The notes beneath the pieces are model-generated. The model was not told where the DNA came from, did no database searches, and worked only from the letters and a program-made list of their open reading frames with translations. The position numbers and the translations under genes are program-made. 64,000 bases of DNA from Squalus acanthias (taxonomy: Eukaryota), in assembly GCA_030390025.1 (NCBI GenBank), contig CM059431.1:98830001-98894000 (forward strand), written 5' to 3'. This document shows, piece after piece, positions 25,638 to 62,551 of the stretch (positions are counted from its first letter, which is position 1; each line of letters opens with the position of its first letter).

Positions 25638-25900
25638 GGCAGCAGAGGCCGCTGGCCCCGCCCCCGGCCTGACCCTGACCCTGACCCCGCCCCCCCGGTC
25701 GGGCCGGCCGTTACTCGCGCGCCCTCGCGCCCAGTTTTGAATTTGCCGCGCAGGCGCACCGCCCCCTTTTCCCGTCGCGGCGCCGAAAGCCGATTGGCCG
25801 GGACTCGCTAATTTATTCAAATTTTAAGCCGGGGCGCCCTTTGACCTGAGCCTCCGTGCTAGCCCCCCTCCAGGTGGTGTGGCCCGAATGGCCTCACTGC
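25620..25900. promoter_or_regulatory. CpG-island promoter, probably bidirectional
   Basis: Unique GC/CpG-rich stretch with GC boxes (CCCCGCCCCC), an ATTGG/CCAAT box near 25792 and an NRF1-like GCGCAGGCGC; outward-facing splice donors at 25559 (minus) and 25983 (plus). Confidence 0.7.
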
Positions 25901-25982
25901 CCAAATGGGGCTCAATCCCCAAACTGGCACCTTTGACTGCGTGAGGAGGTACCCCAGCCCGAAGAGGGGGGTCTTCATTGAG
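25850..25982 (+). other. Putative non-coding first exon of the IgSF gene (5' end approximate)
   Basis: Consensus donor GAG|GTGAGT at 25982/25983 just downstream of the CpG island. Confidence 0.5.
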
Positions 25983-26080
25983 GTGAGTATTAGTGCATAG
26001 AGAGGAAGGAAGTGTTTGCTTTTGTTGGTTGTCCCACTCTGTAATTTCTATAATTTATTGCATGCCCAACGCTTTGTGAA

Positions 26081-26765
26081 AGGAAAGAATGTGCATTTCT
26101 ACAGCGCCTTCCATATCATCCTGATGTCCCAAAGCGCTTTACAGCCAATGGAGTATTTTTCGAAGGTTACTCACTGCTGTAATGTAGGAAACGCGGCACC
26201 AAATGTGCGCACAGCAAGCTCCCACAAACAGCAACGAGAGAAATAGACAGTTAATCTGTTTCTGGTAGCGTTGATTGAGGGATAATTGTTGGCCCAGAAC
26301 ACCAGGAGCGCTCCCTAATCGTCTTTAAATAGTGGCTGTGGGATCTGCTACATCCACCTGAACAGGCAGATGGGGCCTCAGTTTAACATCTCATCTGAAA
26401 GATGGCTCCTCTGACAGTGCAGCGCTCCCTCAGTACTGCCCCTCCGACAGTGCGGCGCTCCCTCAGTACTGCCCCTCCGACAGTGCGGCGCTCCCTCAGT
26501 ACTGCCCCTCCGACGGTGCGGCGCTCCCTCAGTACTGCGCCTCCGACGGTGCGGCGCTCCCTCAGTACTGCCCCTCCGACAATGCAGCACTCCCTCAGTA
26601 CTGCCCCTCCGACAATGCAGCACTCCCTCAGTACTGCCCCTCCCACGGTACAGTGCTCCCTCAGTAATGCCCCTCCGACTGTGCAGCGAATGCTCCCTCA
26701 GTACTGCACTGAAGTGCTCAACTCCTGGAGTAGGGCTTGAACCTCCAACCTGACTCAGAGGAGAG
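26081..26765 (-). mobile_element. Deu-type SINE with internal tandem amplification
   Basis: Family tail, body and head on the minus strand, interrupted by the 33-bp array. Confidence 0.8.
26408..26708. repeat. 33-bp minisatellite, about 9 copies
   Basis: Unit CTCCGACAGTGCGGCGCTCCCTCAGTACTGCCC, head-to-tail, no spacers. Confidence 0.95.
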
Positions 26766-26931
26766 CTGCTGAAGAAGTTGATCCTTTAATGTTTACTCTT
26801 CCTCATAGAGTTGCCTTTACGGTGCTGTAAATCCTTGTAAAATGTTTTCTCGGAACGGCCTACTCCTATATTGTGAGCCTGGGGCTAAATATGAAATATT
26901 GACAGGAGCGTGATTTACCGGGTTGGGCTTT

Positions 26932-27365
26932 TTTATTTATTCATTCATGGGATGTGGGCGTCGCTGGCAAGGCCAGCATTTATTGCCCATCCATAATTGC
27001 CCTTGAGAAGGTGGTGATGATGAACCACCTTATGCAACTGAGTGACTCGCTTGGCCATTTCAGAGGGCAGTTTAGAGCCAACCACATTGCTGTGGATCTA
27101 GAGTCACATATAGGCCAGACCAGGTAAGGGTGGCAGATTTCCTTTCCTAAAGGACATTAGGGAACCAGATGGATTTTTATGACAATCCGGTAGTTTCATG
27201 GTCACCATTACTGATACTAGCTTTTTATTCCAGATTTTTAAAATGTAATTAACTGAATTTAAATTCCCCAGCTGCTGTGATGTGATTAAGAACTCATGTT
27301 CCCCAGATCATTAGTCCAGGCCTCTGGATTACTAGTCCAGTAACATAACCACTATGCTACCGTAC
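26932..27365 (-). mobile_element. tRNA-headed SINE sharing both body and tail with the LINE at 38625-41217
   Basis: Reverse complement starts GTACGGTAGCATAGTGG (A box). Body matches 38630-38832; tail matches 41130-41217. Confidence 0.8.
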
Positions 27366-27895
27366 TCTTTGCTGACTGCTTTTTCTATACATGCCTTGGT
27401 TCTGATTGATCATTGTTAAAGTCCATTGCAGTAAGCCCCTCTGTTCACTTTAGCTCCAGAGTACCGATAAAAATCCTGCTCTTCCCAGCTTAAATCAATG
27501 GATGGAAAATCAGGCACCGTGGGCCCGTTATTTCCCTTCAAGTGCCATTCCTTGCCAGGAGCGCCTGGTCAGCCTATAGTGTATGCCGTTGTTAATAGTT
27601 TTAAGCAATATCTGGAATATTTTATCAAACTGGTTAAAAGAAATTGTAAGAAAAAACTTATTTTTCTTTTCTAACTTGTAATAGCCATTAAATCTTACAA
27701 TATAATTAATCACTAAATTATATTTATAACTTTTGTCTAGATTTTCACTTGGGGAGATGTTGAAAACAAGTATTTTCCAGACCTGCGATAACATTTCTCC
27801 GTGGGCTGTTACAAAATGCAAGTGTCATGAAAATACTGTGACTAATGTTCTCCAGCCCGTGCCTGCATTTCTTCTGGAGTGAAAGCTTTGAGAAC

Positions 27896-27956
27896 ATGAA
27901 ATCCTTTGGTCTTACGGTCTTCATTCAAGCCGTTTTACAGCTTGTATTCATAATTC
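27896..27956 (+). CDS. Leader (signal peptide) exon of IgSF gene: MKSFGLTVFIQAVLQLVFII; exon spans 27856-27956
   Basis: Acceptor ctaatgttctccag at 27855; AACATG start; basic-then-hydrophobic peptide; donor C|GTGAGT in phase 1, matching the phase-1 acceptor at 47111 (gives ...VFII-P-VFIKA-DHV). Confidence 0.7.
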
Positions 27957-29074
27957 GTGAGTAATAACTAAACTTGCTTTCCTATTGAGCCTAAAATCAA
28001 TATTGTTAGTAACAGTTTCTTTTTTTTATTATTCATTATTGGAATGTATGCGTTGCTGCCAAGGCTGCCATTTATTGCCCTTGACAAACTGGTGTTTGTC
28101 TTCACATCGCATGGGCACTCGGCAGTTTAAAAAACCTTGCTTTTGACTGATGTTAATTGATTCAAATAGTGATTATATGATGTTGAACTACTTAAAATTC
28201 CTGGGCAATGGAGCTATTCCTGTCTTCACTTGATAACTTGGATTGGTCTTCAAAATTCACTGGGTAGTTTTTGAATTCTACAGCCTTGCACCCAGGTACA
28301 GATTGATAAAGCAAGATTATTATTTGAATACAACTACATTAGGTACTCTTCATTAGATAAATTTGTCAACTTCTGCACATTTAAAAATTATCCTGCACTA
28401 TGAGGACAATTAAACAGGCACTTTTACACATATAAAGGTCCATTCTGTGATCCATCGCTATCAGCAGTCAGCCACAATCACAGGTAGCATATAGTGCACT
28501 CCCTGTGAGTGCTGCTCCCAATGGAAGTGTCGGATCATGGAATTCACCCCTGGGTTGCATTCACTCCATGCACCCTGCGTCCTTCCTATGACATCTGGAT
28601 GTGAGGTTTTTTTGTGTCTCGACTGGAGCAGATATTTTGAGTTTCACTTTTCTTTCTGTGTCTATTTCCTTCCATCTATTTATTCTGTCAGTTGGTTCCC
28701 CAGTAATTTCTGTTCAGCCATATTCTCTCTCCTGACATATAAAGTTACACTGACAAGATCAGTTATTTGAAGAGGCCCTGTGATCTAGAATTACACACTT
28801 TGTGTCTAATATTAGAATACAGGAATGAGATATCATTTTACTTTCAGTGTAGACTAGATCATGTAAATCATATTGAGCAGAATATAGGCAGTGTACCCAA
28901 TTTCCCAAGAAACTGTCTCAATCTGTATCACCTCCCATCCAAAAGGAAAGAAGGAAAACTCACTGAGAAAAACAAAAAGAAGATTTAGGGAGCGAACCAG
29001 AAGAGAAGAGAAAATGAAAGGGCAACACAGAGATCCACTAGTATTTATATATAATGATGATTTAAACCCAATCT

Positions 29075-30047
29075 ATATCCAAAACTCTGCTGCCCATATC
29101 CTAACTTGCTCCAAGTCCCGCTCACCCATCACCCCTGTGCTCGCTGACCTACATTGGCTCCCGGATCGGCAATGCCTCAAATTTAAAATTCTCATCCTTG
29201 TTTTCAAATCCCTCCAGGGCCTCGCAACTCCCTATCTCTGTAACCTCCTCCAGCCCTACAACCCTCCGAGATCTCTGTAACCTCCTCCAGCCCTACAACC
29301 CTCCGAGATCCCTGTAACCTCCTCCAGCCCTACAACCCTCCGAGATCTCTGTAACCTCCTCCAGCCCTACAACCCTCCGAGATCCCTGTAACCTCCTCCA
29401 GCCCTACAACCCTCCGAGATCTCTGTAACCTCCTCCAGCCCAACAACCCTCCGAGATCCCTGTAACCTCCTCCAGCCCTACAACCCTCTGAGATCCCTGT
29501 AACCTCCTCCAGCCCTACAACCCTCCGAGATCTCTGTAACCTCCTCCAGCCCTACAACCCTCCGAGATCTCTGTAACCTCCTCCAGCCCAACAACCCTCC
29601 GAGATCCCTGTAACCTCCTCCAGCCCAACAACCCTCCGAGATCCCTGTAACCTCCTCCAGCCCTACAACCCTCCGAGATCCCTGTAACCTCCTCCAGCCC
29701 TACAACCCTCCGAGATCTCTGTAACCTCCTCCAGCCCTACAACCCTCCGAGATCTCTGCGCTCCACTAATTCTGGCCTCTTGCGCATCCCCGATTCCCAT
29801 CGCTCCACCGTGCGTTCAGCTGCCTAGGCCCTAAGCTCTGGAATTCCCTCCCTAAACCTCTCTGCCTCTACCTCTGTCTCGTTAGAAACCTACATCTTTG
29901 ACCAAGCTTTTGGTCATCTATCCTAATAGCTCCTTATGTGATTTGTGTCAACTTTTGTTTGATAACGCTCCTGTGAAATGCCTTGGGCCATTTTACTACA
30001 TTAAAAGTGCTATATAAATGCCACCTGTTGTTGTTGTTGTTGTTGTT
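29075..30047 (+). mobile_element. L2-clade LINE 3' end containing a minisatellite
   Basis: IQNSAAHILT..PITPVLADLHWLP..FKIL; GCTATATAAATG followed by a (TGT)n tail. Confidence 0.85.
29236..29758. repeat. 37-bp minisatellite, about 14 copies
   Basis: Unit TGTAACCTCCTCCAGCCCTACAACCCTCCGAGATCYC, near-perfect, no spacers. Confidence 0.96.
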
Positions 30048-30320
30048 TTAATTTCAATGAATACTGGAAAGGTTGTTAAAGCGATTTTGCATAAGCAGAT
30101 CCATTCTTTTGATATCCAAATGAGTAAAAACACAATCTGAAGCAATTCTAGAGTCCAGATATCTAAGTGCAATTATCACCTTGTAGCCCGAGGGCTCAGC
30201 AAACATCCCTTCTTTAAATAGCTTGCAAACCTGTGCCCAGGTCTCAACACAAATTCCGTGTGGCATGTCCAAAATGGACCCATGCTTTTTCTGATAACAC
30301 TATCAGAAACAGTCAATTAA

Positions 30321-30685
30321 ATAAGAACATAAGAAATAGGAGCAGGTGTAGGCCATACGGCTCCTTGAGCCTGCTCCGCCATTCAATAAGATCATGGCTG
30401 ATCTTCTACCTCAACTCCACTTTCCCGCCTGATCCCCATATCCTTTGATTCCCTTAGTGTCCAAATATCTATCGATCTCTGTCTTGAATATACTCAACGA
30501 CTGAGCCTCCACAGCTCTCTGAGGTAGAGAATTCCAAAGATTCACAACCCTCTGAGTGAAGAAATTTCTCCTCATCTCAGTCCTAAATGGCCGACCCCTT
30601 ATCCTGAGACTGTGATCCCTGGTTCTAGACACAGATGAAACTGCCTCTCAGCATCTACCCTGTCAAGCCCTCCAAGAATTTTATA
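30321..30685 (-). mobile_element. CR1 3' end fragment
   Basis: RTEMRRNFFTQRVVNLWNSLP; ATAAGAACATAAGAA tail. Confidence 0.85.
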
Positions 30686-31662
30686 CGTATAACTGCATAG
30701 AACAGTTTTAGGAGGTAAATGTTCAACTTTAGCACTCCTGTTTCACACACTGGGATCACAAATGAGGAATTTAGGGGTGCAATCAATTTATGGCCCCACA
30801 ATTTTCTATCCATTAAAGATGAGAAGCTGAGAACTTTAATCCCGGGAATGTGCATGCATCCTATAAAAGGAAGGATTTCCCAATATTTGAGCGGAAATCC
30901 CGCCCAGCGTTAATTCAGCCTATTCGCATTGGGCATTGAACTTAAGCAGTGTATGGAGCTACGCAGAGACAGTTAGCAATCACCAAAGAGGGGTCCGCCC
31001 CTATAATACAATCCTCACAAAGGAGGAATGGTCCTTCTGTTGAGAAAATGCTCGACGTAGATGGGTTGGAAATCAAGTATTGAAGCTCAGCTCACCCGAT
31101 TGAGAAATGAGCTGTTGCTGCAATACAAATTCTAATTACTCTCAGGCATGGTTGGATTACAGAGATACTTGGTCACACAGTTTGTGGCACTGATACTTTT
31201 CATATTTATGGGTTCATTCACTTTTGATGGGAATATGTACAAAAAAATGGGACTATCTACAAAAAAGAGCTTTGAAATGGTATTTTCTTTCTACTTGTTT
31301 TGTTACTATCAGTCAAAAAGAATCCACCAATATCTTCAGCACACAGTGTGATTGATGTCTATGCCGAGTAAGCTTGACGATGATAGATAGAGAACAGAGC
31401 CCGCACTTTCTGAAATTCCACCATTGAGAACAGCTGCTGAAAACAGATAAATATGCAACAAAGCAGTTTTACATTAAGGAATTAAATACTGGGAGAGATA
31501 AGGGACCATAATTTGTGTACTGCAAACTTTTACATTTGTCAGTTAAAAGTTAGACTGATGTAGACTCTCTTAATGTTATGGGCAAACATCAGGGCCCAGT
31601 TTGTGTGTACGCGCTGTAGGTGGGGAATTTCGCCCACCAGTCGCACATATTGGAAAATTAAT

Positions 31663-34004
31663 GGGCCAGATTTTGCTGAAACTATAATGGCGTCTGAACG
31701 ATGCTCGCTGTTATTAATCTGAAAATCGGTGAGCAACTTGTGGCGAGGAAGCGATACCCCGTGCGTCATGAATCACCACAAGTTGCTGGACAATTTGCGC
31801 CACTCCGCTGTTATACATAGATACATAGATACATAGATACATAGAAGATAGGAGCAGGAGTAGGCCATCCGGCACTTCGAGCCTGCTCCGCCATTTAATG
31901 AGATCATGGCTGATCCTCCAATTCAGTATCCCGTCCCCGCCTTCTCTCCGTAACCCTTAACCCCTTTTGCCTGTAGAAATATATCTAATTCCCTCTTAAA
32001 TATATTTAATGAGCTGGCGTACACTGCCCTCTGTGGCAATGAGTTCCACAGGTTCACCACCCTCTGAGTGAAGAAATTCCCCCTCATTTCTGTCCTAAAT
32101 GGTTTAGCCCTTATCCTTAAATTATGTCCTCTAGTTCTGTTCTCACCCGCCAAGGGAAACATTCCTTCTGCATCTAGTCTGTCTAGACCTGTCAGAATTT
32201 TATACACTTCTATGAGGTCCCCTCTCAATCTTCTAAACTCCAGTGTGTACATCCCTAAACTACATAGTCTCTCCTCATAGGTCAATCCCGCCATTCCTGG
32301 TATCAGCCTGGTGAATCGCCGCTGCACCCCCTCCATGGCAAGAACATCTTTCCTCAGATGAGGCGACCAAAACTGTACACAGTACTCGAGGTGTGGTCTC
32401 ACCAGTGCCCTGTACAGCAGCAGCAAGGTATCCCTGTTCCTGTATTCCAACCCTTTTGCTATGAAGGCCAGCATACCGTTTGCCTTCTTGATCGCCTGTT
32501 GCACCTGCATGCTCGCCTTCAGTGACTGGTGTACAAGAACACCCAGGTCTCTCTGTACTTCCCCCTCTCCCAATTTATTGCCATTTAAATAATAATTTGC
32601 CCTCCCGTTCCTGCACCCAAGGTGGATAACTTCGCACTTGTCCACATTATAGTGCATCTGCCATTTATCCGCCCAATCACCCAGTCTGTCCAAATCGCTC
32701 TGGAGCTTCCTGGTCTCCTCCTCTGAGCCCACCCCCCCCTCCTAGTTTAGTGTCGTCTGCAAATTTGGAAATGCTGCATCCGACTCCCTGATCCAGGTCA
32801 TTAATGTAAATTGTGAACAGCTGGGGACCCAGGACAGATCCCTGTGGTACCCCACTTGTTACTGCCTGCCATTCAGAAAATGAGCCGTTTATTCCAACTC
32901 TCTGTTTTCTATCTGACAGCCAGTTCTCTATCCACGTCAATACTTTCCCCTTTATCCCATGAGCTTCAATTTTCCATGCTAATCTTTTATGTGGGACCTT
33001 GTCGAAGGCCTTTTGGAAGTCCAGGTACACCACATCTACTGGCTCTCCCCCATCTATTTTACCAGTTACTCCCTCAAAAAATTCCAATAGATTAGTCAAG
33101 CACGATTTACCCTTTGTAAATCCATGTTGACTCTGTCCTATCCTGTCCCCATTTGCTAAGTGCTCCGCTATTTCATCCTTAATGATGGACTCCAGCATTT
33201 TGCCCACAACTGATGTAAGGCTTACAGGTCTGTAATTACCTGCTTTTTCCCTACCCCCCTTTTTGAATAGTGGGGTAACGTTAGCTACCCTCCAATCCAT
33301 GGGCACTGTTCCCGAGTCTAATGAATTCTGAAAAATCATACTTAGTGCATCCGCTATCTCTAGGGCCACCTCCTTCAGCACCCTAGGATGCATGTTATAG
33401 CTTAGTGAAAACGGCAGCTCGCCCTCAACTGCCCCATGAGTTTCAAGAAATTGCTGAATTTGCGCATTAATTACCCATTAAACTTGACGCAGAATGTTAA
33501 GTCTAGTAATTAACAACGTAAATAAATACCCATTTAACAACGTGATAATTATTAAAGACTGCCAATCAGTCTCCAGCCCAGAAATTGAACAATTAAAAGT
33601 GTGGCGTCTCATTCCTTCAGGTTGTGAATTGTTGTTGGAGAGTTTTAAAATGTCAAATTTTAAATTTGAATTTTTCTCTTACTTTTCCTTTCTGTCTCTC
33701 TTTCTCTCTATATCTCCAATCTTTTTTTCCTTCTCTTTCTGTACCTGATTTGACTCTAATTTGCCCTCCTTCTGCGTCGTTCCTCTGATTCTTTCTCAAT
33801 CCTTTAATCCCATGGGTTAAGGAGATAGACTGTTGGTCCCGTCGTTCACTTGGGTCCCAGATGCCCCACTGTCCTCACCGCACCGTTATCAGCTCGCACT
33901 TCCAGCAACCTTGTGGGCAAAGATTTTTTGAGCTGAAGGGTGCAGGAACAAATCTAACTAACAGGGCACGCTGCAAGATGCCCCACTCCAGCAAATTCTG
34001 GGCA
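31663..34004. mobile_element. Harbinger-type MITE related to 97-4708, split by a CR1 insertion
   Basis: Termini GGGCCAGATTTTGCTG / CAGCAAATTCTGGGCA, AAT on both flanks; shares internal motifs such as GTCTCATTCCTTCAG. Confidence 0.7.
31816..33392 (-). mobile_element. Young 5'-truncated CR1 with target-site duplication
   Basis: TGTTATA at 31809-31815 and 33393-33399; (CATAGATA)n tail; RT open in two ORFs broken only at a C-run near 32730. Confidence 0.93.
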
Positions 34005-34311
34005 AATATCAATGGATGGAAAACTGCGCGCAACACACCTGCGATTTTTTTTTTTCCCAATATGAGCGGTCGCTGTCAGTAGGTGAGATTGCATGGTTGG
34101 AAAATCAGCCATGCAGTGTTCATAGACTCTCTCCCTTCACCTTGAGCTGGGTCTACCAAGATCCCTTAATGTTGTAACAGTGTCAGGTAAGTGGCAATTT
34201 TGTTAGCCAGTGGCCACTCTGAAAGCATCTGCAAGAATGCTGCTCTACAAACCAAAAATAACTTATCCATCAATCTAGTTGTGGAATGTGCAAATTCTAC
34301 ACGGTGGTACA

Positions 34312-34512
34312 AACCCCGATTTTTATTTTTAGATGAGGATCTGCAGCTAATAGTAAGCAACATAAGGGCACAGAGAAATGCTCAGTATGGAGCAGAGGGT
34401 AAAACAGGTGTGAAGACCATCACCATCACAGTAAATGCATGGTCACGTACTCAAGGAACTTGGAGGGATATCCAGGAAAGGAGTTGGACCTCAAGAAAAG
34501 TGCCAAGGTGAG
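34312..34512 (+). pseudogene. Harbinger ORF2 (Myb/SANT-like) remnant
   Basis: KPRF..DEDLQLIV..RNAQYG..VNAWSRTQGTWRDI, then shifted frame DLKKSAK. Confidence 0.5.
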
Positions 34513-34627
34513 CAGAGTATGGCTGAATAAATATAGGCTGTCATGCATATGGAAGCTACCATGTATAGAGAAAACCCTTTATTTCAATCACTGTAAAGTT
34601 GGAGGTGTTCAACTTACATAGTACAGA

Positions 34628-35508
34628 GGGGGGAAAATTTGGTTGCTTTGCGCCTCCCGTTAACCCCCGAGTAAGAGGACGCTAATAGGGCACAAAGCAA
34701 CTAGCGCCCGGGCGCGGCGATGTTTGCACCGCTCGCGAAATTGACCAGACATTTAGCGGCGGCGCTAAACACTACCGCCACGATCTCCTGCGCCCGCAGA
34801 TCGTGACATCAGTCGAGCGTGCAACGCCCCAGTAGCGCCCCAGACCGGATATTGAGTGGCACCCCCTGCCTTTCCGCCTGCCGCTAGCAATGACCGGTAG
34901 AGGGGAACGTTTTGCAGTCGAGAAGGGACTGGGGGAGCGCTATTTAAAGGTGGCCGCTTCCTGCTTTTTTTTGTCGGCGACATTTTTGCACCACGCATTC
35001 TGAGAGAGAGACTTCTGGAGAGATTCAACGCTGTGTGAAGGAGTTTTGGGTACTGAACAGCACTTTGCAGGTTCATTTTGATTTGACCTTCCTTGCATCG
35101 ATTTAGAAGAGACTTTGGGGCTGCACTCTGAGCTCTTTCCCTGGGCCTCTCCATTGTTCTTTCCAGCAGAATTGATGTACAGGTCTCTCCAGGCCAAGAT
35201 TCAAGGCTGCAATGAACAGGGTTTTGCTGGAGAGCAAGATCGACCCTCCCCTTTAAGAACTGGCTGGCGCCATTGTGTGTGTGTTCCATTGCTGACTGAC
35301 ATCACCTGAGCTTCACCAGCGCTCTGAGTTAGCGCCTTGGCAGTAGCGCCTTAAGAGAGGTGTGTAACGCCTGATTTAGCGCTCCAATCACCTCCAGGGG
35401 TGATGGAAGCCAAGTTTGCAGTCGGAGGTGATAATTAGCGCCAGGCGCTAAACTTTGTGCCCGGCCGATAATTGCGCCCCAAACGGGGCGATACCGAATT
35501 TCTTCCCC
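34628..35508. mobile_element. Non-autonomous Harbinger-type element, related termini to 11916-12669 but different interior, opposite orientation
   Basis: GGGGAAAATTTGGTTGCTTTGCGCCTCCCG is the reverse complement of the right end of the 11.9 and 50.1 kb copies; ends CCGAATTTCTTCCCC. Confidence 0.7.
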
Positions 35509-35514
35509 AAGTAT

Positions 35515-35960
35515 TTAAAGTACAGAAACAGGCCATTCAGCCCAACAAGTCATGCCGGTATTTATGCTCCACACGAGCCTCCTCCCACCCTTCTTCATCT
35601 AAACCCATCAACATATCCTTCTATTCTTTCTCCCTCATGAATTTATCGAGCTTCCCCTTAAATGCATCTATGCTATTCGCCTCAACCACTCCCTGTGGTA
35701 GCGAGTTCCACATTCTCACCACTCTCTGGGTAAAGACATTTCTCCTGATTTCCCTATTGGATTTATTAGTGACTATCTTATATTTATGGCCCCTAGTTTT
35801 GGACTCCCCACATGTGGAAATATCTTCTCTACGTCTACCCTATTGAACCCCATTCATAATTTTAAAGACTTCTATTAGGTCACCCCTCAGCCTTCTCTTT
35901 TCTAGAGAAAAGAGCACCAGCCTGTTCAATCTTTCCTGATAGATATACCCTCTCAGTTCT
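35515..35960 (-). mobile_element. CR1 3' end fragment
   Basis: Similar to 21243-21680. Confidence 0.75.
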
Positions 35961-36350
35961 TGTTTGCTTAAGTTGCTTATATACTTAACCTGAATTGGTA
36001 CAGTAATAAAGTCTGTTGAGGCCCAAAAAAGGATAGCCTGTAAGTGAGAAGGATGGAAAACTAACCACCATTATTCATACATAAAACTGATAGGATTAAT
36101 TATTCAAGCAGAACAGGTTAGTGAACGAGCTAAGGAACGCAGTGCTAAAATAATGCCAGTAGGGTTCTATAGTTCAACAGGAACAGGATTCCTCAGCATT
36201 AAAGTCAACTAAATCCCTCTCCATGTGTTACTGGCATTGATAGAACCACAAATACAAGTGCAGTTCCAAGCTTCCAAACACAGCAGTTACTCACCAGCTT
36301 CTCAGGGTCAGTACTTGTGCATGGCCACATGAAGAGAACAGTCTTCCCCT

Positions 36351-42190: not shown

Positions 42191-44404
42191 AATAGTGATA
42201 AGGGATTCAATAGTTAGCGGAGCAGACAGGTGTTTCTGCGGCCGCAGACGTGACTCCAGGATGGTATGTTGCCTCCCTGGTTCCAGGGTCAAGGATGTCA
42301 CTGAACGGCTGCAGGGTATTCTGAGGGGGAAGGGTGAACAGCCAGAGGTCGTGGTCCATATCGATACCAACGACACAGGTAGGAAGAGGGATGAGGTCCT
42401 GCAGGCAGAGTTTAGGAAGCTAGGAAAGAGGTTAAAAAGCAGGACCTCAAAGGTAGTAATCTCCGGATTACTACCAGTGCCACGTGCTAGTGAGTTCAGA
42501 AATAGAAAGATAGAGCAGATGAATGTGTGGCTGGAGAGATGGTGTAGGAGGAAGCGCTTTAGATTCCTGAGGAATTGGAACCATTTCTGGGGGAGGTGGG
42601 ACCTCTACAAGCCAGACGGGTTGCACCTCAATGGGAATGGGACCAATATCCTTGCGGGAGGGTTTGCTAGTGCTGTTGGGGAGGGTTTAAACTAGCTTGG
42701 CAGGGGGATGGGAACCTAAGTATAGAGTCAATAGGGAGGGAAGAAAAACTGGAATTGGAAAACAAAAATGTAGAAAGTAAATTGGAAGGACAGAGGAATC
42801 AAGGGCTAGATGGTAGTCAACAAGGAGGTTTGCCTGTACTAAATGGTATATACTTCAATGCAAGGAGTATAGTGAACAAGGCAGATGAGCTGAGGGCACA
42901 GGTAGATATTGGGACTATGATATTATAGCTATTACAGAGACGTGGCTGAAAGAGGGGCAGGTATGGCAGCTCAACATTCCTGATTTTCAGACGGGATAGA
43001 GAGGGAAGTAAAAAGCCAGTCAGCCTAACCTCGGTGGTGGGAAAATTATTGGAAAGAATTCTGAAGGACAGGATAAAACTTCATTTAGAAAGACACGGAT
43101 TAATCAAGGATAGTCAGCACGGATTTGTTAAGGGAAGGTCGTGTCTGACAAATTTGATTGAATTTTTTGAGGAGGTAATGAGGAGGGTAGATGAGGGTAG
43201 TGCGTTTGATGTAGTGTATATGGTCTTTAGCAAGGCTTTGGATAAGGTTCCACATGGCAGACTGGTCACGAAGTTAAAAGCCCATGGGATCCAGGGCAAA
43301 GTGTCAAGTTGGATTCAAAACTGGCTCGGAGACAGGAAGCAGAGGGTAATGGTTGATGGGTGTTTTTGTGACTGGAAGGCTGTTTCCAGTGGGGTTCTGC
43401 AGGGCTCAGTACTAGGTCCCTTGCTTTTTGTGGTATATATCAACGATCTTGACTTGAATATAGGGGGTATGATTAAGAAGTTTGCAGATGATACTAAAAT
43501 CGGCTGTATGGTTGATACTGAAGAAGGAAGCTGTAGACTGCAGGAAGATATCAATAAATTGGTCAGGTGGGCAGAACAGTGGCAAATGGAATTCAATCCG
43601 GAGAAGTGTGAGGTAATGCATTTGGGGAGGGTTAACAAGGAAAGGGAATACACATTAAATGGTAGGACACTGAGTAGTGTAGAGGAACAAAGGGACCTTG
43701 GAGTGCATGTCCACAGATCCCTGAAGATATCTGGCCAAGTAGATAAGGTGGTTAAGAAGGCATACAGAATGCTTGCTTTTATTAGCCGTGGCATAGAATA
43801 CAAGAGCAGGGGGGTTATGCTTCAACTGTATAAAACACTAGTTAGGCCTCAGCTAGAGTACTGCGTGCAGTTCTGGTCACCACATTACAGGAAAGATGTG
43901 ATTGCACTAGAGAGGGTACAGAGGAGATTTACAAGGATGTTGCCGGGAGTAGAGAATCTTAGTTATGAGGAAAGACTGGATAGGCTGGGTCTGTTTTCCT
44001 TGGAACAGAGGAGGCTGAGGGGAGATCTTATTGAGGTGTATAAAATTATGAGGGGCATAGATAAAGTGGATTGAAAGGACCTATTTCCCTTAGCAGAGGG
44101 GTCAAAAACCAGGGGGCACATATTTAAAGTAATTGGGGGAAGGTTTAGAGGGGATTTGAGGGGAAATTTCTTCACCCAGAGGGTTGTGGGGGTCTGGAAC
44201 TCACTGCCTGAAAGGGTGGTAGAGGCAGGAACCCTCACCACATTTAAAAAGTACTTGGATGTGCACTTGGGATGCTCTAACCTGCAGGGCTATGGACCAA
44301 GAGCTGGGAAGTGGGATTAGGCTGGATAGTTCTTTGTTGGCCGGCGGGGACACGAAGGGCTGAAATGGCCTCCTTCCGTGCTGTAACTTTCTATGATTCT
44401 ATGA
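42191..44404 (+). mobile_element. CR1 LINE with ORF1 esterase and internally deleted ORF2, nested in the minus-strand CR1
   Basis: TTAAC duplicated at 42186-42190 and 44405-44409; (TTCTATGA)n tail; RT ORF 43034-44074; EN start joined directly to RT near 43010. Confidence 0.9.
42195..42695 (+). pseudogene. CR1 ORF1 SGNH/GDSL esterase domain
   Basis: RDSIV (GDS-like), LPG, HIDTND (GxND-like) and DGLHLN motifs. Confidence 0.8.
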
Positions 44405-45003
44405 TTAACTCTAGCCATATAGATTCTGTCCTTGACCCCTCCAGGACATCCTCTCTCTTCAGCACTGTAACATTCTCCTTAACCAATACTGTCACACCAC
44501 CTCCTATCTTTCCTTCCTGAACACCTCATATCCAGGAATATTTAATACCCAATCCTACCCTTTTTTGAGTCAGGTCTCCGTTATTGCCACGACATCATAT
44601 TCCCATGTGGCTATTTGCGCCTGCAGTTCACCAACCTTGTTTGCTATGCTTTGTGCATTCACATACATACACTGTAAACTTATCTTAGACCATCCTGTGT
44701 TCTCTTTTAGTCTGACCCCACCTACTACTTTACTATTTCTTGCTTTAGTGCTATCGGTCTCCCAATCCTTTGTGCCCTTCGTTACTCCTTTCTAATTCTA
44801 CATCCTGGTGCCCATCCCACTGCCAACTTAGTTTAAACCCTCCCCAACAGCACTAGCAAACCTCCCTGCGAGAATATTGGTACTGGCTCTGTTGAGGTGC
44901 AACCCGTCCGGCCTGTACAGGTCCCACCTCCAGCCACGCATTTCTATACTCACTCGCACGTGACACCACCCCAATTGGCGGTGAAAAGTTGTGAATGAAC
45001 AAA

Positions 45004-45999
45004 GGGGTGATTTTCAACGGTTCATTCAGGCGCTAAAGAGCCTCCGAGGTGGCCAAGATGGGGTCGTGAGCTGAAATGCTGGTTTAGCCCATGTTTAACG
45101 CGAGATGCCATCTTGGTAAAGGAGATGAAGCTTGCAATAAGAACGGCCGCCCAGAGGATTGTTAAGGGGCTGATTGCCATTTAAATTAACTGCTAGTGCT
45201 CATTAATGAGGCTGCGCGGCATTTTGGCGGAGAACGCTTGGCCTAACGCCCTCTCCTAACAGTGACCAGCTGACTGGGAGTAAACAAGTCGTTGCTGAGG
45301 ATTTCGAACACTACTTAAAGGTGTGTCACCTTTTACTGTTCACTTGCTGCTGGAGGTTTGAAGAGGACTTTTGAAACACATGGGAGACTTTCTGGGACAC
45401 TTTGTCAAGACTTCACCAAAATATCAACATTTATTCCAGAAATTCTCTGAGGACTTTGCCTAAAAAGAGTGAGCACTGTGCTACTCCACCTTATTGGGCA
45501 TCTTCTAGGAGTCACCAGGAGAAAGAGAGTGCTTGGTCATGGCCATTTTGATAGGGGTTCCCCTTGGTCCGCTGGAGGAATGGGAGGAGGAGATGAGAGC
45601 AGGCAGAGCAGCCCCAGCAGGAGAGAGCGAGAGGAGGGCGAGGTAGACCCCTTCCCCCCCTCACCCCCCCGGTGGGTACAGGACATCCCTCCTCCTCGGG
45701 ACCTCCTCCACCAGGACCTCCAGTGCCGCGTCCGAGAACCTGTGCGCCCTCTAACTCGGTCCCTGAGCCATCCTGAAACCTGTCGCTGTGTGTCAGCCAG
45801 CCCACTCCACATCTTCAGTGGGAGTGGGTGCGAGGAGCCCACATACACTGCTCCACCAAAATTGTGTCTAATCAGCGCTTGAGTGCTAAACTTGCAGGTG
45901 TCTGTTTTAGTGCCTGCAGGCAGACCTTCTACCAGGCATGTCTTATGAGCACAGCACCCATTTAGTGCCTGTTTTCACCCTTTCACCAAAATAATCCCC
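45004..45999. mobile_element. Non-autonomous Harbinger derivative
   Basis: GGGGTGATTTT / AAAATAATCCCC termini, AAA flanks; traces resembling the transposase N-terminus (DLQCR, PVAV). Confidence 0.55.
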
Positions 46000-46671
46000 A
46001 AAATGTCAATGAACACCTCCTGACGTTCTACCTAGTAAGCTTCACTGCATTGTCCCAAGAGTTCTGTACTGTGAACCATGATGCAACAAGCCAGAGGCAG
46101 TTATCAGGGGCTGGATTTACAACTTGTTGGCAGATCTCAGGTTGGTGGTGCATTGCACCCTGGTTGCTCTAACCTCCTCCATGGCCAAGCAGGCGGGGAG
46201 AGGAGGAGAGGCACCAACACTTCACACAACTTCCACTTGGAAGACATTCGAATTTGAAAAGTTACAAATGCTACTTATAAGCAAAATATTCAACCTTTGG
46301 GCAATAGGGAGATTGGGTGGTGGGTGCAGTTAAAAGTCTGTTCTTTCACCTCGTGGATTTGGGTTTGCATGCAGCACAGACTTATGGGAATAAAAGGCTC
46401 TTGCTGTAAAAGTCTATGTGAAATAAGCTTGACAGTTTTAGCCCAGTTTCTTGTGGGTGAGGTGCTCACTCCGTAGAGCAATAATTTGGAAATTTTGCTC
46501 AGAGAGGCTGTCTCGATAGCTATGGTTTGTTTCCCTTTTGTATTTCTGGTACTAAATTAAGTATTACTTTACCAAGGAAGATCTCACTTCAGTTTTAATT
46601 CTCAGTTATAGGCATAAGCAGCAAAAATGTACTAAACCGTAGAAACCTAAAGACAAATATTTACCTAATAT

Positions 46672-46890
46672 ACAACAACAACTTGCATTTATATAGCGCC
46701 TTTAAGGTAGCAAAATGTCCCACGGTGCTTCACAGGAGCGTTATCAGATAAAAATTGACCTTGAGCCAAAGAAGGAGACATTAGGACAGGTCTTGGTCAC
46801 AGATGTAGGTTTTACAGAGTGCCTAATAGAGAGAGGAGGAGAGGCAGAGAGGTTTAGAGAGGGAATTCCAGAGCTTAGGGTTCTAGGCAC
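46672..46890 (-). mobile_element. L2 LINE 3' tail fragment
   Basis: CAACAACAACTTGCATTTATATAGCGCC; reverse complement of the L2 end at ~29830-30047. A similar fragment is at 48190-48460. Confidence 0.7.
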
Positions 46891-47110
46891 TGAAGGCTAC
46901 TGGGATAATAAATATTCATGATTTTGGAATTTACCTGCTATCTATTGAACATCAAGGTGTGAGATTTCCTCTGTGCGTTGTGTAGCAAAATCATAAGTGC
47001 ATTTCTTTTAAACGGGTTTACCATTTCGTAACACAGAGGAAATCTTGCCTCCCTTTCCCGAGTTACAATGAATGAACAATCTGATTAATTCTTCATTGCA
47101 ATATAAACAG

Positions 47111-47719
47111 CTGTATTCATCAAAGCTGACCATGTGGCTGAAAGTGGAACCATGTCTGTCTTCCCTCATCTGGAAACCCCTCATAACGAAACTGTGGCTA
47201 ATGGAAGAGTCAATGTGATGACAAACACAAGCTTGGCTTTGAAAACAGTTGCAACAGCCACCCTTCTGCCTATTGGGGATGAATCATTAGTTACTGAAAG
47301 CAGTGTGGAGTCAAATGAAACCGAAACTGCTGAAACAACTATCACAGAAGAGGTACGAGCACAACCACAACAGCCATCTGTGGATCAGGGTATTGACCAA
47401 CTGAAAGTTCAGGAGGGGAAGTCGGCGATTTTGCCATGCCAGTATCACAATAATGGTGCTTATTCAGACGAACTCTCTGTATTGTGGTACAGGGAAGACC
47501 TCTCTAGGAAGTTACCTATTGTAAGAGATAATGCAACTGACTCTGCTAACTATTCTGGTCGAGCGTTTCTAAGTGGGCATCTATCAAAAGGAGATGCTTC
47601 CATGACAATTCTCGATGTGGCTGAGAGTGATCGTGGCACTTATTTCTGTACTATAATACTTCCTAATGGGACAACTCTAACTGGTGATGGTACACACCTC
47701 ATGGTGAAATCAAAAACAG
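47111..47719 (+). CDS. IgSF gene exon: S/T/E-rich mucin-like segment plus V-set domain with J-like G strand
   Basis: aaacag/gtatct boundaries, 609 bp, phase 1-1, open frame; LPC, LWY, GDASMTI, DRGTYFC, GDGTHLMV; six N-x-S/T sites. Confidence 0.92.
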
Positions 47720-48564
47720 GTATCTTTACATTGTATTCTTTCAAAGCTAAACAACTCTGAAATGTTCGTTCGAAGATAACACTTTATCAATTAATAATGT
47801 GCTTTGATGTAATTATCTTTAAATCCCTCTATGGCCTCCCCTATCTCTGTAACCTCCTTCAGTGTCATGGACTGCGGCACTTATTTCACTCATTTATAAT
47901 GTAGGAATTTGGTCTATGAAAGTTAATGCTCCTAATTTCCAGTTGAAAATTGGTGATGTAAGTCTTACCAATATGGTTTTGGTGTATTGAATGTTTACAT
48001 TTAAATAATTAATTCTTAGTACACAACTATTGCTGAGTAGGGTTGATACTATATGTGAGTTTTGTCTCTTTTGAGTATCATAATATTCAATCCAGATGAA
48101 GAGATAAGGACTCAACTTCTCATATTGTAAGAGCTGGTTTTAAGGCTAAGTTGTCTATTGTGGAGACCTTTATTCAGCAATAACTATTATGACAACAACA
48201 ACTTGCATTTATTTAGTGCCAATAATTGAGGATAAAGGCCCAAGGCACTTCAACAGAAGCATAATCAAAAACATGGGCACTGAACCAAAGAAGGGAATAT
48301 TAGAAGGGTTAACAGTGGGTTTTAAGGAGTGTCTTAAAAGAGGGAAGGGAGGTGGAGAGGCAGATGGGGTTTAAGGAGGGAATTCCAACGCATGGGGCCT
48401 AGGCAGATAAAGGTATGCAGCCAATGGGGGGTCGAAGAGGAGGGGAGATGCACAAGAAGCTGGGGTAAGATTAATATGTGCTTAATGAGTAACGTCATTT
48501 TTCTGATTAAGGTGTTTTTAAATGTCAGGGCTTGGTGTATATTTTTTCATTTATCCTCTTCTAG

Positions 48565-48704
48565 GGCTTTTTGGTTTTAAAGAAACCTTAGGAACCACCA
48601 TTGGGATTATTGCAGCAAGTATTGGTGTCTTTGTTGGATTTTTGGCCATTCTTGTACCACGCTTCAGAGAAAGATGCCATGTCAAAAATCAGACACACTA
48701 CAAG
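48565..48704 (+). CDS. IgSF gene transmembrane exon (GLFGFKETLGTTIGIIAASIGVFVGFLAILVPRFRERCHVKNQTHYK)
   Basis: Pyrimidine tract plus ctag acceptor, AAG|GTGAGA donor, phase 1-0; about 20 uncharged hydrophobic residues followed by basic RFRER. Confidence 0.9.
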
Positions 48705-48954
48705 GTGAGATAAATTTGCACTGTACCAATTCATTAAACATCCAATGAAACTGTCACCTAAAATTTCAACTTAAAAACGTCTGTACAATTAGAAGGAGCC
48801 AATTTTAACTCATTCCATTGCCAACTGCTTGGTACAAACGGCTTCTCATTGTTATTTTTTACAATTCCAGCAAATGTTCTTTCACACCAGTGGAAATTAA
48901 AATGGTAATACATGTTATGAGTTGGGCCCACTGCTGATTTTCTTTGTTTCACAG

Positions 48955-49023
48955 CAATTTTCAGTTTCCATAAATGAACCAATGCACCCTCTGAGACAAG
49001 ACCTTCAAATTTATATAGTATGA
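48955..49023 (+). CDS. Candidate terminal exon A of IgSF gene (QFSVSINEPMHPLRQDLQIYIV*)
   Basis: Acceptor ctgattttctttgtttcacag, phase 0, 22 codons then TGA. Confidence 0.6.
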   Translation, partial: QFSVSINEPMHPLRQDLQIYIV

Positions 49024-49349
49024 TGAACAGGATAGGTTGCTCAGGATTAGCAATCTACACATTTAAGATAAAATTGCTTCTAGATAGTCCACGGGATTCC
49101 ATTACATCACATGTCAATTGAGAAATTGGATAATATCAACCATGTAAAATGGTTTTTGTAACAGGCTACTACTATTCGGTATCATTTACGACTAGGATAA
49201 CTTACAGAAGCATGGAAAAAATGAAAGGTACGAAACAGCACAACACAGTACTATGAGTCTGGAGACAGCTTGTAAGGGGTTAACTAAAGAAACCAGCCCA
49301 ACAAATCTCTCTGGCGTTTTTCTTGTAGATTTTGAGACAAATACTTCTT

Positions 49350-49886
49350 GGAAAGCCTCAGCTGGAGTATTGTGGACAATTCTAGGCTCCACACTTCAGG
49401 AAAGATGTAAAGGCCTTAGAAAGGGAACAGAGGAGGTTTGTCAGGATGTTATCAGGGATGAGGGACTTCAGTTATGAGGAGAGGTTGGAAAAGTTAGGAC
49501 TCTTCTCTTTGGAACAGAGAAGGTTAAGAGGTGACCTAATAGAGGTTTTCAAGATGATGAGGGGTTTTGATTCCATCCGGCGAGTGGGCCAATAACCAGA
49601 GATCATAGATTTAAAATAATTGGCAAAAGATCGAGAGGGGAGACGAGGAGAATTTTTTCACTGAGAGTTGTGGGGATCTGGAACGCTCGACCTGGAAAGG
49701 TGGTGGAAGCTGATTCCATCAATAATTTTAAAGGGAGTTGTACGGTACTCGAGGTTGAGGAACTTACAGGGTTACGGACAAAAAGTGGGGATGTGGGACT
49801 AAGCACGACTGCTCTTTCAAAGAGCCAGCATGGACACGATAGTACAAATGGCCTCCTTCTGTGCTGTAAATTTCTATGATTCTATG
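49350..49886 (+). mobile_element. Degenerate CR1 3' end
   Basis: GAAGGTTAAGAGGTGACCTAATAGAGG (RRLRGDLIE); TTCTATGATTCTATGA tail. Confidence 0.75.
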
Positions 49887-50113
49887 AAAGAGATATATGG
49901 TCTTGTTCATTAGACCAATACAGAAAATTTTCTGTTTTATAAATATATTCATTCCTTTTCTTTGAAATTCATTCAGTCAAACAAGATGGGCTGAACAATA
50001 CCATTGATACAATCTTCAAACACAAAGTCATGAAGACCACATGGGTGCTAAATATACAATGTCTAGGTTTGGCAATTCAACTCAATTCAACCCTCAGTTG
50101 ATGTTAGACACAT

Positions 50114-50834
50114 GGGGCTAAAAATTGAGGAGTGCTAATGTCGCCGGGGCACTACATTTAGCGCCCCGGAAAAATTAGCAGCCCCACGCTGGAACTTGAG
50201 TGAGTGCGCCCCAAGAGGGAAGCGGGGCGCTATTAGAAGCGCCCGCATCCCTCTTGGGGCGCTGCGAGTCAATATCGCAGCGCTTTGTGCCGCAGCACGT
50301 CGCGCTGCAGTATTGCAGGCCTTCCTCCCCTTCTTAAAGGGGAGGGGCCTGGCGCAGCGCGACCCGGGGCCCAGCTGGGCCCCCGGGGATCGGGAGTGCC
50401 GGCAAAAGAGCCCGGCACTCGAGATGTGCCGGGCTCTTGGAGCGCAGCCGGCACTCTGCGAGGGGGGCCGTTCAGGAGGCCGGGGACGGGAGCGCAGGCA
50501 GGTACTGGCAGGCGGCCAGCAACAAAAATGGCCGCCCCGCACCTCGCCTTTAAATTGCGCCTCCCCGGCCGCAGGTAGATCCCCCTGACCCCGTCGGACA
50601 TAGTGTCCGGCGGTAAGTCAGGGGGCGCTCCCGAAGATCGCGAGCGGGGCACTGCGCACGGCAATGACGTCATCGCCGGCGGTGCAGCGCCGCGGGGCGC
50701 TACCAGTTAGCGCCACCGCTAACCTCCCGCTGAATTTCGTGGGTGGCGCCGCGCCCGGGCGCTAGTTGCTTTGCGCCCCGTTAGCACCCTCTTAGGGCGC
50801 TAACGGGAGGCACAAAGCAACCCAATTTTTCCCC
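50114..50834. mobile_element. GC/CpG-rich non-autonomous Harbinger-type element, second copy
   Basis: GGGGCTAAAAATTG / CAATTTTTCCCC termini, CAT duplication; collinear with 11916-12669. Confidence 0.8.
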
Positions 50835-50945
50835 CATTCTATTCACGCCTGATTTAATTGCATTGATTCCTAATCAAAGGCAAGGAGCTGTGTTCCCACA
50901 GCTGCGATGACAACAGCTGCAATTCTGTAGCCTTCAGAAGACATT

Positions 50946-51050
50946 GGCTGGGGAATTCCTTGGAGCTCGTCATCTCTGCCGCCATAACTTCACCGCAGGT
51001 GCGGCAGACACCCTGTTTACACATGTAAAGCGCAGAGGAAATTCCCAGCC
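50946..51050. mobile_element. Very small MITE
   Basis: TIR GGCTGGGGAATTCCT / AGGAAATTCCCAGCC. Confidence 0.5.
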
Positions 51051-51073
51051 ACAGCTTCCATTTTGAAAATTAT

Positions 51074-51820
51074 GGCCCGGATTTTGTGGTTAGCAGCGAA
51101 GAAGCGACCGTTCACTACATTGCCCACAGAGTTTACGCGGGACTTTTGAGCGTAGACTTGCTGTCATTGGGCATGTAATCCAGCGCAGTGCCCTCTACAG
51201 GGGATCTGTAGGCGTCTATGAGTAGGTAAAGTAGCAGCGAGGCTCTTTAACCAATCAGATTGAAGAATCCTCACTGAGCTACGCAGCATCTAAACCAGGA
51301 AGTATAAACCAGAAATTATAAATTAGATTTAAATCATGTACAGTAAGTGAAATAAAGACTGGGAAAGAAAGTTGGGATTAACAGAGATAAAAAGAGACAA
51401 AGTAAAAAAATTAATTATTTTAATATTTTAAAATCTCCAACACTAATTAAATTCTGAAGGAATGAGACTCCACACTTGTAAAATTAATTTTTCAGTGCCA
51501 GAGAGGTTGTTTGGCAGTAATTAAGACTTATCACACCGTTAAAAATTCACTTACACCTGAATGCACCAGCCCTAACTTTTTCTGCCGTGTTTAGTGGGTG
51601 TCCAGCGAGTAAGTACAGCAACTTCACATCCTTACATTGATTTCAATGCTGAGTCGAGCGGCGAGGTACTGTTATAGCGCAGCCTGCAGAGGAGGAGGGT
51701 AACTCGGACCGCAGCTTCCCAATTCCGTGTTTAACTGCGCATGTGCATACTCTGGAATTTGCTGTCCGATTTACTCCATAACCGTTAGGCTCACCGTTAT
51801 TCTCAACGCAAATCCGGGCC
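51074..51820. mobile_element. Uninterrupted Harbinger-type MITE, inverted relative to 97-4708
   Basis: TIR GGCCCGGATTT / AAATCCGGGCC; 51450-51545 is the reverse complement of ~345-445. Confidence 0.8.
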
Positions 51821-52576
51821 AATAGGTTGCTATTGCTTTTAAAAGTTATGGGTAAAACTAACAACCAAGTGTCCATATTTGCCACACTATGAATGGACCT
51901 GGGTTTTTCTCCGGATGAAGAATAGCAGGTCACACTTGTTTTCAGCAATGCTTAGGCATGAAAAGCATCCATCTCGGTGACAGAGAAGGTGGGAAATGAA
52001 ATTAATTTGTTGTGCTCAAAATATTTAAACATACAACAGAGACTCGCTGTATTAAGGATTCTCAGTACTGTGTGAAGGGAGTGGAGTTTGTGGCAGGTTC
52101 CGATAACGATGGCTTCAGTCTTAATGGTCAGCTGAAAGAAGTTGTGACTCATTCATGACAATGTCAGACAGGTGATCAGATTGAGAAGGAGACCCGTTGT
52201 GGCATCAGTACACAAAAGGCAGGTCTCGATTACTAGAAATTACAGGAATGCCTAACCCTTGGGTTAATCACATCAGTACAGTTCATTTCACTGCTTCATA
52301 CTGTTGGACTCAGTAACTCAAACAGTAACTGGCACTCACTGTTTAAACAAATAGAAAATTTATATTATTTTTAATCACAGGCATCTAGTGTCCTTTACCC
52401 AACCTGTACCGTGGGCAGTTAAAGATCAATTAACTTGTAGATGATGCAGGAAATCCCAGTCTTACTCGAGCTCCTTCTCTGTAATTATATAAGCTCTGCC
52501 TGGTACGCTTGCGTTTCCCTACAAGACTCTTCTTTGCTAGTTACTGATGCTAATATGACTTTTTATTTTTCTACAG

Positions 52577-52645
52577 CTCGAGATGCCCCAGCATAGCTCA
52601 GAAATAAATACAACGTTGATCCACTATCTAAGTTATTTGGTATGA
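52577..52645 (+). CDS. Candidate terminal exon B of IgSF gene (LEMPQHSSEINTTLIHYLSYLV*)
   Basis: Acceptor ctaat...ttttatttttctacag, phase 0, 22 codons then TGA; AATAAA downstream at 53074. Confidence 0.5.
   Translation, partial: LEMPQHSSEINTTLIHYLSYLV

Positions 52646-62341: not shown

Positions 62342-62551
<210 letters not shown>

Follow-up and report, generated by a model that had tools for sequence, protein, structure and literature searches.

Genes that encode a V domain and its J strand in a single exon and do not rearrange have been sought as clues to the gene that was split by the RAG transposon (PMC12227049, in its available part). The same part of that paper describes two such shark genes, UrIg and UrIg2, i.e., a non-rearranging single-exon VJ domain behind a split leader, followed in the protein by at least three C1 domains; UrIg is secreted, and these genes are given there as linked to the major histocompatibility complex (MHC) or an antigen-receptor complex and as restricted to elasmobranchs. 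NKp30 (NCR3) is described there as MHC-linked (PMC12227049). For the CD28/CTLA4 family, the available text of PMC11599192 gives as criteria a proline-rich FG-loop motif (PPP or E-I-P type), tyrosine-based motifs in the tail and defined synteny blocks. Here, we describe a further gene with a V-set domain, found in a stretch of 64,000 nucleotides of Squalus acanthias (contig CM059431.1 of assembly GCA_030390025.1, positions 98,830,001 to 98,894,000), which is called the window below. The gene lies between ATP6V1A and GRAMD1C, and it is a real, conserved and so far unnamed VJ-type V-set gene.

The V-set gene is non-rearranging, of the single-exon VJ type and without a C domain. Its second exon matches the Pfam family PF07686 with 61.4 bits (cut-off 26, E 1.1e-16; residues 96-198 of the 202-aa translation P0001), and the domain shows the canonical Cys, Trp and D-x-G-x-Y-x-C with two Cys in the V domain. 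The same exon holds a J-like G-D-G-T-x-L-x-V strand, which aligns to the J strands of T-cell receptor (TCR) alpha and whose G-x-G-T is near-invariant over 43 aligned rows. We scanned both strands of the whole window for recombination signal sequences (RSS; CAC heptamer with at most one mismatch, spacer of 12 or 23 +/-1, nonamer with at most two mismatches) and obtained no site. With regard to a C domain, none of the 17 largest intronic open reading frames (ORFs) matches an immunoglobulin (Ig) family, and the orthologous proteins are likewise without one. That is, compared with a rearranging Ig or TCR gene, V and J are contiguous, RSS are absent from the window and no C-domain exons were found; the gene represents neither a rearranging nor a diversified antigen receptor. 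An initial annotation of this DNA had named the canonical residues, the J-like strand in the same exon and the lack of RSS and C domain, all of which are borne out.

Four coding exons make up the gene model (Table 1). The first three stand as initially annotated, with correct splice dinucleotides, and an AG precedes 52577 at the start of the fourth. Exon 1 comprises 20 codons plus one base, i.e., a phase-1 intron interrupts the leader, and it shares its M-K-S-F start with the orthologues. Joined as assembled, exons 1-4 form an open frame of 292 aa. The transmembrane helix appears as a hydrophobicity peak at protein residues 234-256. AATAAA is located at 52603 and 53074. An in-frame upstream ATG at 27845, 17 codons before the start in exon 1, parallels an N-terminal extension of the S. 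torazame protein P0006. Within exon 2, a possible internal donor lies just before the V domain (Table 1), and in P0016, an isoform of 187 aa predicted for S. torazame, exon-3 sequence follows at exactly the equivalent point, such that the V domain is skipped. Judged from the sequence, such a join would yield a membrane-anchored form with the glycosylated N-terminal segment only.

The 3' end of the gene had to be corrected. The initial annotation had a phase-0 join of exons 3 and 4, a 69-nt terminal coding exon (52577-52645) and a product of about 292 aa, values which result from a deficit of 1 bp in a homopolymer of the assembly. Two DNA samples taken from the same organism (X1 and X5; the assembly may stem from one of them) provide one read-derived contig each with an extra A behind 48669, at 9.21/9.21 and 13.8/13.8 depth, respectively, i.e., the A-run 48670-48672 has three As as assembled and four with the read-derived insertion. 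Given the extra A, exons 3 and 4 join in phase 1, the stop codon TAG is found at 52594-52596 and the protein has 276 aa, which equals the length of the Pristiophorus orthologue P0003; the corrected tail is identical to the latter at 21 of the last 24 residues. The earlier 52577-52645 exon is exon 4 read in the shifted frame of the assembly. All shark orthologues end with a conserved short tail, and the window as assembled leaves that frame from mid-exon 3. The contigs of both samples share a second homopolymer difference, namely an additional T behind 48549, 120 bp from the inserted A, which points to homopolymer under-calling in the assembly; other gene models could be affected here, too. A synonymous A>G exchange at 48656 is also present in the contigs of both DNA runs. 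We considered whether the assembly is correct and the altered tail belongs to a frameshifted allele or an incipient pseudogene of this species. The three assembled As lead to a different 32-aa tail which is still terminated by a stop codon, as this would demand. Nevertheless, we rate it as very improbable, given the full depth of the extra A in both samples, the second difference common to the two runs and the intactness of the remaining gene, whose V domain shares 92% identity with the Pristiophorus one.

To place the gene among other species, a word-indexed search with exon 2 was performed, which yielded 9 proteins among 276 candidates, all from sharks, 57-87% identical and named either 'uncharacterized' or 'immunoglobulin superfamily member'. 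A profile of the shark proteins was compared with 1.84 billion cluster representatives and gave 2087 matches at E <=0.001, mostly multi-Ig proteins; among the best 150 of these we observe small proteins whose match runs without interruption from pre-V segment to tail. The names of 20 representatives were checked, and 19 turned out to be family-like, while P0111 is a pIgR-like protein of Pristiophorus from a different gene. Family-like representatives come from Callorhinchus for the cartilaginous fishes, from Polypterus, Scleropages, Umbra, Dallia and Sinocyclocheilus for the ray-finned fishes, from Latimeria and Protopterus for coelacanth and lungfish, from Numida, Athene and Zosterops for the birds, and from Hemicordylus, Phrynocephalus, Naja, Crocodylus, Gopherus and Chelydra for the other reptiles. 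A word-indexed search with a 14-sequence profile resulted in 165 matches at E <=1e-10, whose best 120 comprise 9 chondrichthyan, 110 sauropsid and one unnamed sequence; the sauropsid ones include Gallus LOC418355, and a zebra finch counterpart also exists. Neither mammals nor amphibians occur among the best 120 of these 165 profile matches or among the 20 name-checked representatives.

We also computed a maximum likelihood tree for 40 of the 147 family-like sequences plus the window (41 rows). It follows the species tree with high support for chondrichthyans (100/100), ray-finned fishes (96/93) and the lobe-finned lineage (95/86), and the window sequence groups with Pristiophorus and Heptranchias. 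On these sequences the family is old, looks single-copy and is widespread in jawed vertebrates. Hence, the initial label 'lineage-specific' had to be dropped in view of counterparts in chimaera, bichirs, teleosts, coelacanth, lungfish, birds, crocodilians, turtles and squamates, whereas the accompanying suggestion of a loss in mammals is consistent with the searches, which fall short of proving it.

Linkage with GRAMD1C is conserved as well, since in 10 sauropsids a family member and Aster-C (GRAMD1C) are found on longest contigs of identical size (e.g., a 367-kb scaffold of Tinamus; in Callipepla, the locus tags are three apart). In Ficedula, GRAM and VASt domains are found in a UniRef entry (P0321) that is named for QTRT2; adjacent genes were probably merged into one model in that annotation. 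With regard to naming, every relative found is either 'uncharacterized' or bears an automatic name that disagrees with the others (HAVR2, SYG1, KV5AF, MPZL3, IGSF6, NCTR3 and SCN3B-like), i.e., as initially proposed, there is no named one-to-one orthologue. A literature search for the LOC and UniProt identifiers of the family, the synteny of the locus and terms of the Ig superfamily (IgSF), supplementary tables not covered, retrieved no paper that names the gene.

The protein consists, in this order, of the split leader, a pre-V segment, one V-set domain, the transmembrane helix and a tail of about 20 aa. The pre-V segment is acidic and rich in Ser/Thr (S+T 0.26, D+E 0.15) and holds 3 of the 6 N-x-S/T sequons encoded by exon 2. 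Over the 43 aligned rows, the top residue reaches a frequency of 0.39 for the pre-V segment, 0.67 for the V domain, 0.74 for the stalk, 0.66 for the transmembrane helix and 0.50 for the tail. Both the FG loop (L-P-[DN]-G type) and the G-x-G-T are shared by members from sharks through birds. The transmembrane helix follows the G strand after only about 10 residues and is rich in glycine and alanine across the family. All over the family, the tail keeps basic residues and one juxtamembrane Cys. It holds no Tyr motif and none of the signalling motifs looked for, i.e., immunoreceptor tyrosine-based inhibitory (ITIM), switch (ITSM) or activation (ITAM) motifs or YxxM. The transmembrane columns of the 43 rows are free of Lys and Arg.

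The explanation we favour, although we give it about an even chance, is that of a monomorphic, non-signalling surface protein whose V domain binds one conserved partner and which packs in cis via stalk and transmembrane helix. The gene product is a type I membrane glycoprotein of 276 aa that carries its V domain almost directly on the membrane. The FG loop would serve as the conserved binding loop, the conserved stalk and transmembrane helix would pack against another membrane protein or against a second copy of the protein itself, and the juxtamembrane Cys is a likely palmitoylation site. Adhesion proteins of the myelin P0 type and the beta subunits of sodium channels are built in this way. 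A non-signalling protein of the adhesion or auxiliary-subunit type is suggested because signalling motif and adaptor-pairing residue are both missing, the V domain sits on the membrane, the presumed binding loop is conserved and conservation of the transmembrane helix equals that of the V domain. Lacking both a signalling motif and a charged transmembrane residue, the protein thus seems at least as likely to act as a ligand, adhesion molecule or auxiliary subunit as to be a receptor.

We compared the protein with named families at the level of structure, sequence profile and language-model features. Since a model of whole exon 2 based on 10 sequences was unusable (predicted local distance difference test, pLDDT, of 34.2), we used an AlphaFold2 model of the V domain only, built from 43 sequences (pLDDT 92.8, predicted TM-score 0.85). 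In our reading, no named family is clearly closest: the V domain is a generic antigen-receptor-like V, while the overall build is like that of MPZ and the sodium-channel beta subunits. An all-against-all structure search over 48,161 chains ranks MPZ first (Z 16.7, root-mean-square deviation 2.0, 113 aa), directly followed by SCN2B (Z 16.6). With the family profile, SCN2B aligns all the way from V domain to transmembrane helix (E 1.2e-6), and language-model features of V domain, transmembrane helix and tail place SCN2B (0.97) and MPZL1 (0.96; 12 of 30 matches) right after the family's own cluster. MPZ/MPZL and SCN2B (PDB 8iia, 5fdy, 6j8g) share with the shark protein the arrangement of one V-set domain directly on a single transmembrane helix with a short tail. 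On the other hand, identities amount to 22-25% only, and the family of the shark gene has in addition a glycosylated segment at the N-terminus as well as a J strand with the canonical G-x-G-T.

Among the sequence matches of the family profile, JAML (PDB 3mj6) ranks first (E 9e-15 and 6e-19 in the two PDB profile searches) and resembles the shark protein in its V-set fold (Z 15.3) and as a type I membrane protein. It differs in sequence (about 22% identity), and the match spans neither the G strand nor the transmembrane helix. Furthermore, the V domain is present twice in JAML and the tail is a signalling one, unlike in the shark gene.

Several observations weigh against the favoured explanation. 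In the structure search, MAG, sialoadhesin, the V domain of TCR delta and antibody V lie within 1 Z of MPZ and SCN2B, i.e., they are ties. In the sequence profiles, SCN2B is outranked by JAML (6e-19), pIgR (4e-18) and Ig light-chain V, and neither SCN1B nor SCN3B is among the 60 rows shown in either of the two PDB profile searches. When the language-model search is restricted to the V domain, it returns clusters of Nectin-2, CD22/CD33-like, PD-1 and CD200R1-like proteins instead of SCN2B or MPZL. Because of this drop, the likeness to MPZ and the beta subunits is to be read as one of overall build and not as demonstrated kinship. The exon-3 peptide alone matches nothing in PDB at E up to 10, and the N-terminal glycosylated extension is not known to have a counterpart in MPZ or the beta subunits. 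Finally, read-derived contigs of four runs, two of which are only guessed to be RNA, were placed on 46900-52800, i.e., with exon 1 outside this range. None of them spans an intron, and the splice junctions are predicted from the sequence; the two guessed-RNA runs provide one contig of about 238 nt each, located inside exon 2.

The same comparisons bear on a different role, namely that of an immune co-receptor or immune ligand with its partner on another cell, like SIRP, NKp30, PD-1 or CD200R; the gene may moreover be related to the V gene predating the rearranging receptors. The top Foldseek matches of the V model are SIRP-alpha D1, Ig lambda V and TCR V (E 4e-10 to 2e-9), followed by sialoadhesin, SCN2B and VSIG4, with TM-scores of 0.75-0.82 and identities of 16-28%. 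The first three have in common with the shark domain a VJ-type V fold with a G-x-G bulge; Ig and TCR V differ in that they rearrange and pair with C domains, while the shark gene is without RSS and C domain. Profile matches to Ig light-chain V include the J strand, and the sequence profiles also match TIM-3, CD276 and NKp30, the latter weakly but over the whole V domain including J (E 4e-7). Like the shark protein, NKp30 has a single non-rearranging VJ-type domain on a transmembrane helix. A single-exon VJ domain with a leader split in phase 1, as known from antigen-receptor genes (PMC12227049, available part), fits an immune role as well, as do the Nectin-2, Siglec-like, PD-1 and CD200R1-like neighbours of the V domain in the language-model search.

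An immune role nonetheless appears unlikely to us, if still clearly worth considering. It has to be reconciled with a tail without ITIM, ITSM, ITAM or YxxM, a transmembrane helix without a basic residue for adaptor pairing, the missing stalk that would project the V domain, and a V domain that is highly conserved instead of diversified. Moreover, all matches are at most 28% identical and no family stands out among them. The setting of such a role would be the IgSF-rich chromosome block which in human (3q13) also harbours CD200, CD200R, BTLA and TIGIT. The motifs and synteny blocks that define the CD28 family in the available part of PMC11599192 differ from those of the gene, and UrIg and UrIg2 carry C1 domains and are, as far as the available part of PMC12227049 states, found in elasmobranchs only.

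Membership in individual immune families was considered separately, and five of them were rejected. In SIRP proteins, the V domain is followed by two C1 domains; the shark gene encodes a single Ig domain. NKp30 has a basic residue within its transmembrane helix for adaptor pairing, which distinguishes it and the activating natural killer (NK) receptors from the shark family with its Lys- and Arg-free columns. In the TIM family, a mucin domain is placed between V domain and membrane, and the V domain has six Cys; here, the glycosylated segment is N-terminal to a V domain with two Cys, and the TIM-3 match covers part of V only (E 2.5e-12). The CD28/CTLA4 family was discarded given an FG loop of the L-P-[DN]-G type, a tail without Tyr and ATP6V1A and GRAMD1C as neighbours, and the UrIg family given the direct transition from V domain to transmembrane helix, the membrane anchor and the wide distribution in jawed vertebrates.

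The recurrence of SCN2B near the top of the family profile, the all-against-all structure and the V-to-tail feature searches leads to yet another explanation, which also draws on the locus. The gene could be a third copy (ohnologue), still surviving, of an ancestral V-set/transmembrane gene linked to GRAMD1, whose other copies became sodium-channel beta-1 and beta-3, and thus a true auxiliary subunit of an ion channel that was lost in mammals. In zebrafish, mouse and human, scn1b is closely apposed to gramd1a (PMC1965480, available part). The shark gene, in turn, abuts GRAMD1C, and an older NCBI name of the coelacanth protein is 'sodium channel subunit beta-3-like'. SCN3B is adjacent to GRAMD1B, which would favour this origin. 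SCN1B and SCN3B are located 3' of their GRAMD1 neighbours, in contrast to the shark gene on the 5' side of GRAMD1C; this counts against common ancestry, just as the absence of SCN1B and SCN3B chains from the rows shown in the PDB profile searches and the failure of the V-only language-model search to retrieve any beta subunit. We therefore consider the ohnologue origin quite improbable. Similarly doubtful is that the gene represents the last surviving copy that was kept together with the GRAMD1 genes through two vertebrate genome duplications, and thereby a fifth, unrecognised beta-like auxiliary subunit. Such a subunit would have been kept in sharks, ray-finned fishes, coelacanth, lungfish, reptiles and birds and lost in mammals, a history to which we likewise attach a low probability.

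Both flanking genes were recovered on the minus strand (Table 1), which confirms the initially reported location. GRAMD1C is at low and ATP6V1A at high coordinates, such that the V-set gene (plus strand) is divergent from the former and convergent with the latter; its stop codon and that of ATP6V1A are about 7.7 kb apart. When comparing the GRAM-domain ORF with longer proteins, named rows among the best 120 of 583 matches are almost all Aster-C/GRAMD1C and none is named Aster-A or Aster-B; the GRAM exon has no match in PDB. The penultimate coding exon of ATP6V1A is part of an ORF at 62342-62551. Among 150 ORFs of at least 45 aa from 49195-63941, no relevant Pfam family was found although the ATP6V1A exons sit there, and a first motif scan for the ATPase core also found nothing; the exons were identified by a later motif scan and a PDB search. 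A GC-rich stretch between the 5' side of GRAMD1C and exon 1 may be a candidate promoter region.

Concerning repeats, the 19-kb intron 1 is packed with fragments of long interspersed nuclear elements (LINEs) on both strands (28000-46000). From the 17 largest intronic ORFs, 9 match LINE-type families (reverse transcriptase, endonuclease or esterase), 8 of them in intron 1. The last intron contains high-copy repeats, for which the k-mer depth in 49264-51800 reaches about 5.9e5 in all four runs, compared to 10-20 for unique sequence. These repeats are partly GC-rich (GC 0.51 in 50001-52000) and show no Pfam or Rfam match. Also in the last intron, on unique sequence, a 228-nt contig of the guessed-RNA run X11 covers 50832-51059 and has three variants in common with DNA run X5; carried-over DNA, pre-mRNA or a transcript missing from the annotation could each account for it. 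Transposon remnants within GRAMD1C introns are observed at 2527-3952 and 8656-8853. A search of the whole window with Rfam at the gathering score gave no match.

Table 1. Features of the window with position, strand and content or basis of assignment (ORF, open reading frame; LINE, long interspersed nuclear element; LTR, long terminal repeat).
Feature	Position	Strand	Content or basis
Exon 1	27896..27956	+	ATG to GT donor; start codon and most of the signal peptide
Exon 2	47111..47719	+	AG/GT borders; leader end, pre-V segment of about 85 aa, entire V domain with J-like G strand
V-set (VJ-type) domain as modelled, 118 aa	47365..47718	+	Pfam and AlphaFold2
Possible internal phase-1 donor (G/GT)	47389..47391	+	Just before the V domain; use would give a V-less isoform
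Exon 3	48565..48704	+	AG/GT borders; stalk of about 10 aa, transmembrane helix, juxtamembrane basic/Cys stretch
Exon 4, coding part	52577..52596	+	Phase 1 in read-supported frame; AG acceptor and pyrimidine tract before 52577
GRAMD1C (Aster-C), GRAM-domain exon ORF	12927..13190	-	Pfam GRAM, E 2.2e-10
GC-rich stretch (0.535)	24001..26000	.	Composition profile; between GRAMD1C 5' side and exon 1
ATP6V1A, last coding exon (approximate borders)	60343..60437	-	Six-frame motif scan; borders from translation
ATP6V1A, penultimate coding exon	62351..62530	-	phmmer vs PDB: V-ATPase subunit A residues 528-587 of 617, E 1.8e-31
LINE reverse transcriptase ORFs	32680-33477, 37575-37976, 38002-38646, 39360-40295, 42950-44071		Intron 1
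LINE endonuclease ORF	41484-42161		Intron 1
GDSL-esterase ORF	42174-42692		Intron 1
LTR-retrotransposon pol remnant		+	Reverse transcriptase, RNase H, integrase zinc domain; in a GRAMD1C intron
DDE_Tnp_4 transposase fragment		-	In a GRAMD1C intron

On the practical side, the correction of a single homopolymer error of 1 bp in the assembly alters the predicted tail of the protein. On present evidence, the V-set gene adds one more orphan to a very large superfamily and does not constitute a new kind of system. It is, however, older and more widespread than first supposed, and both its sequence and its linkage to GRAMD1C are conserved from sharks to birds. Its apparent absence from mammals may account for the gene having gone unstudied, and with the counterparts in chicken (LOC418355) and zebra finch it can be tested in standard models.

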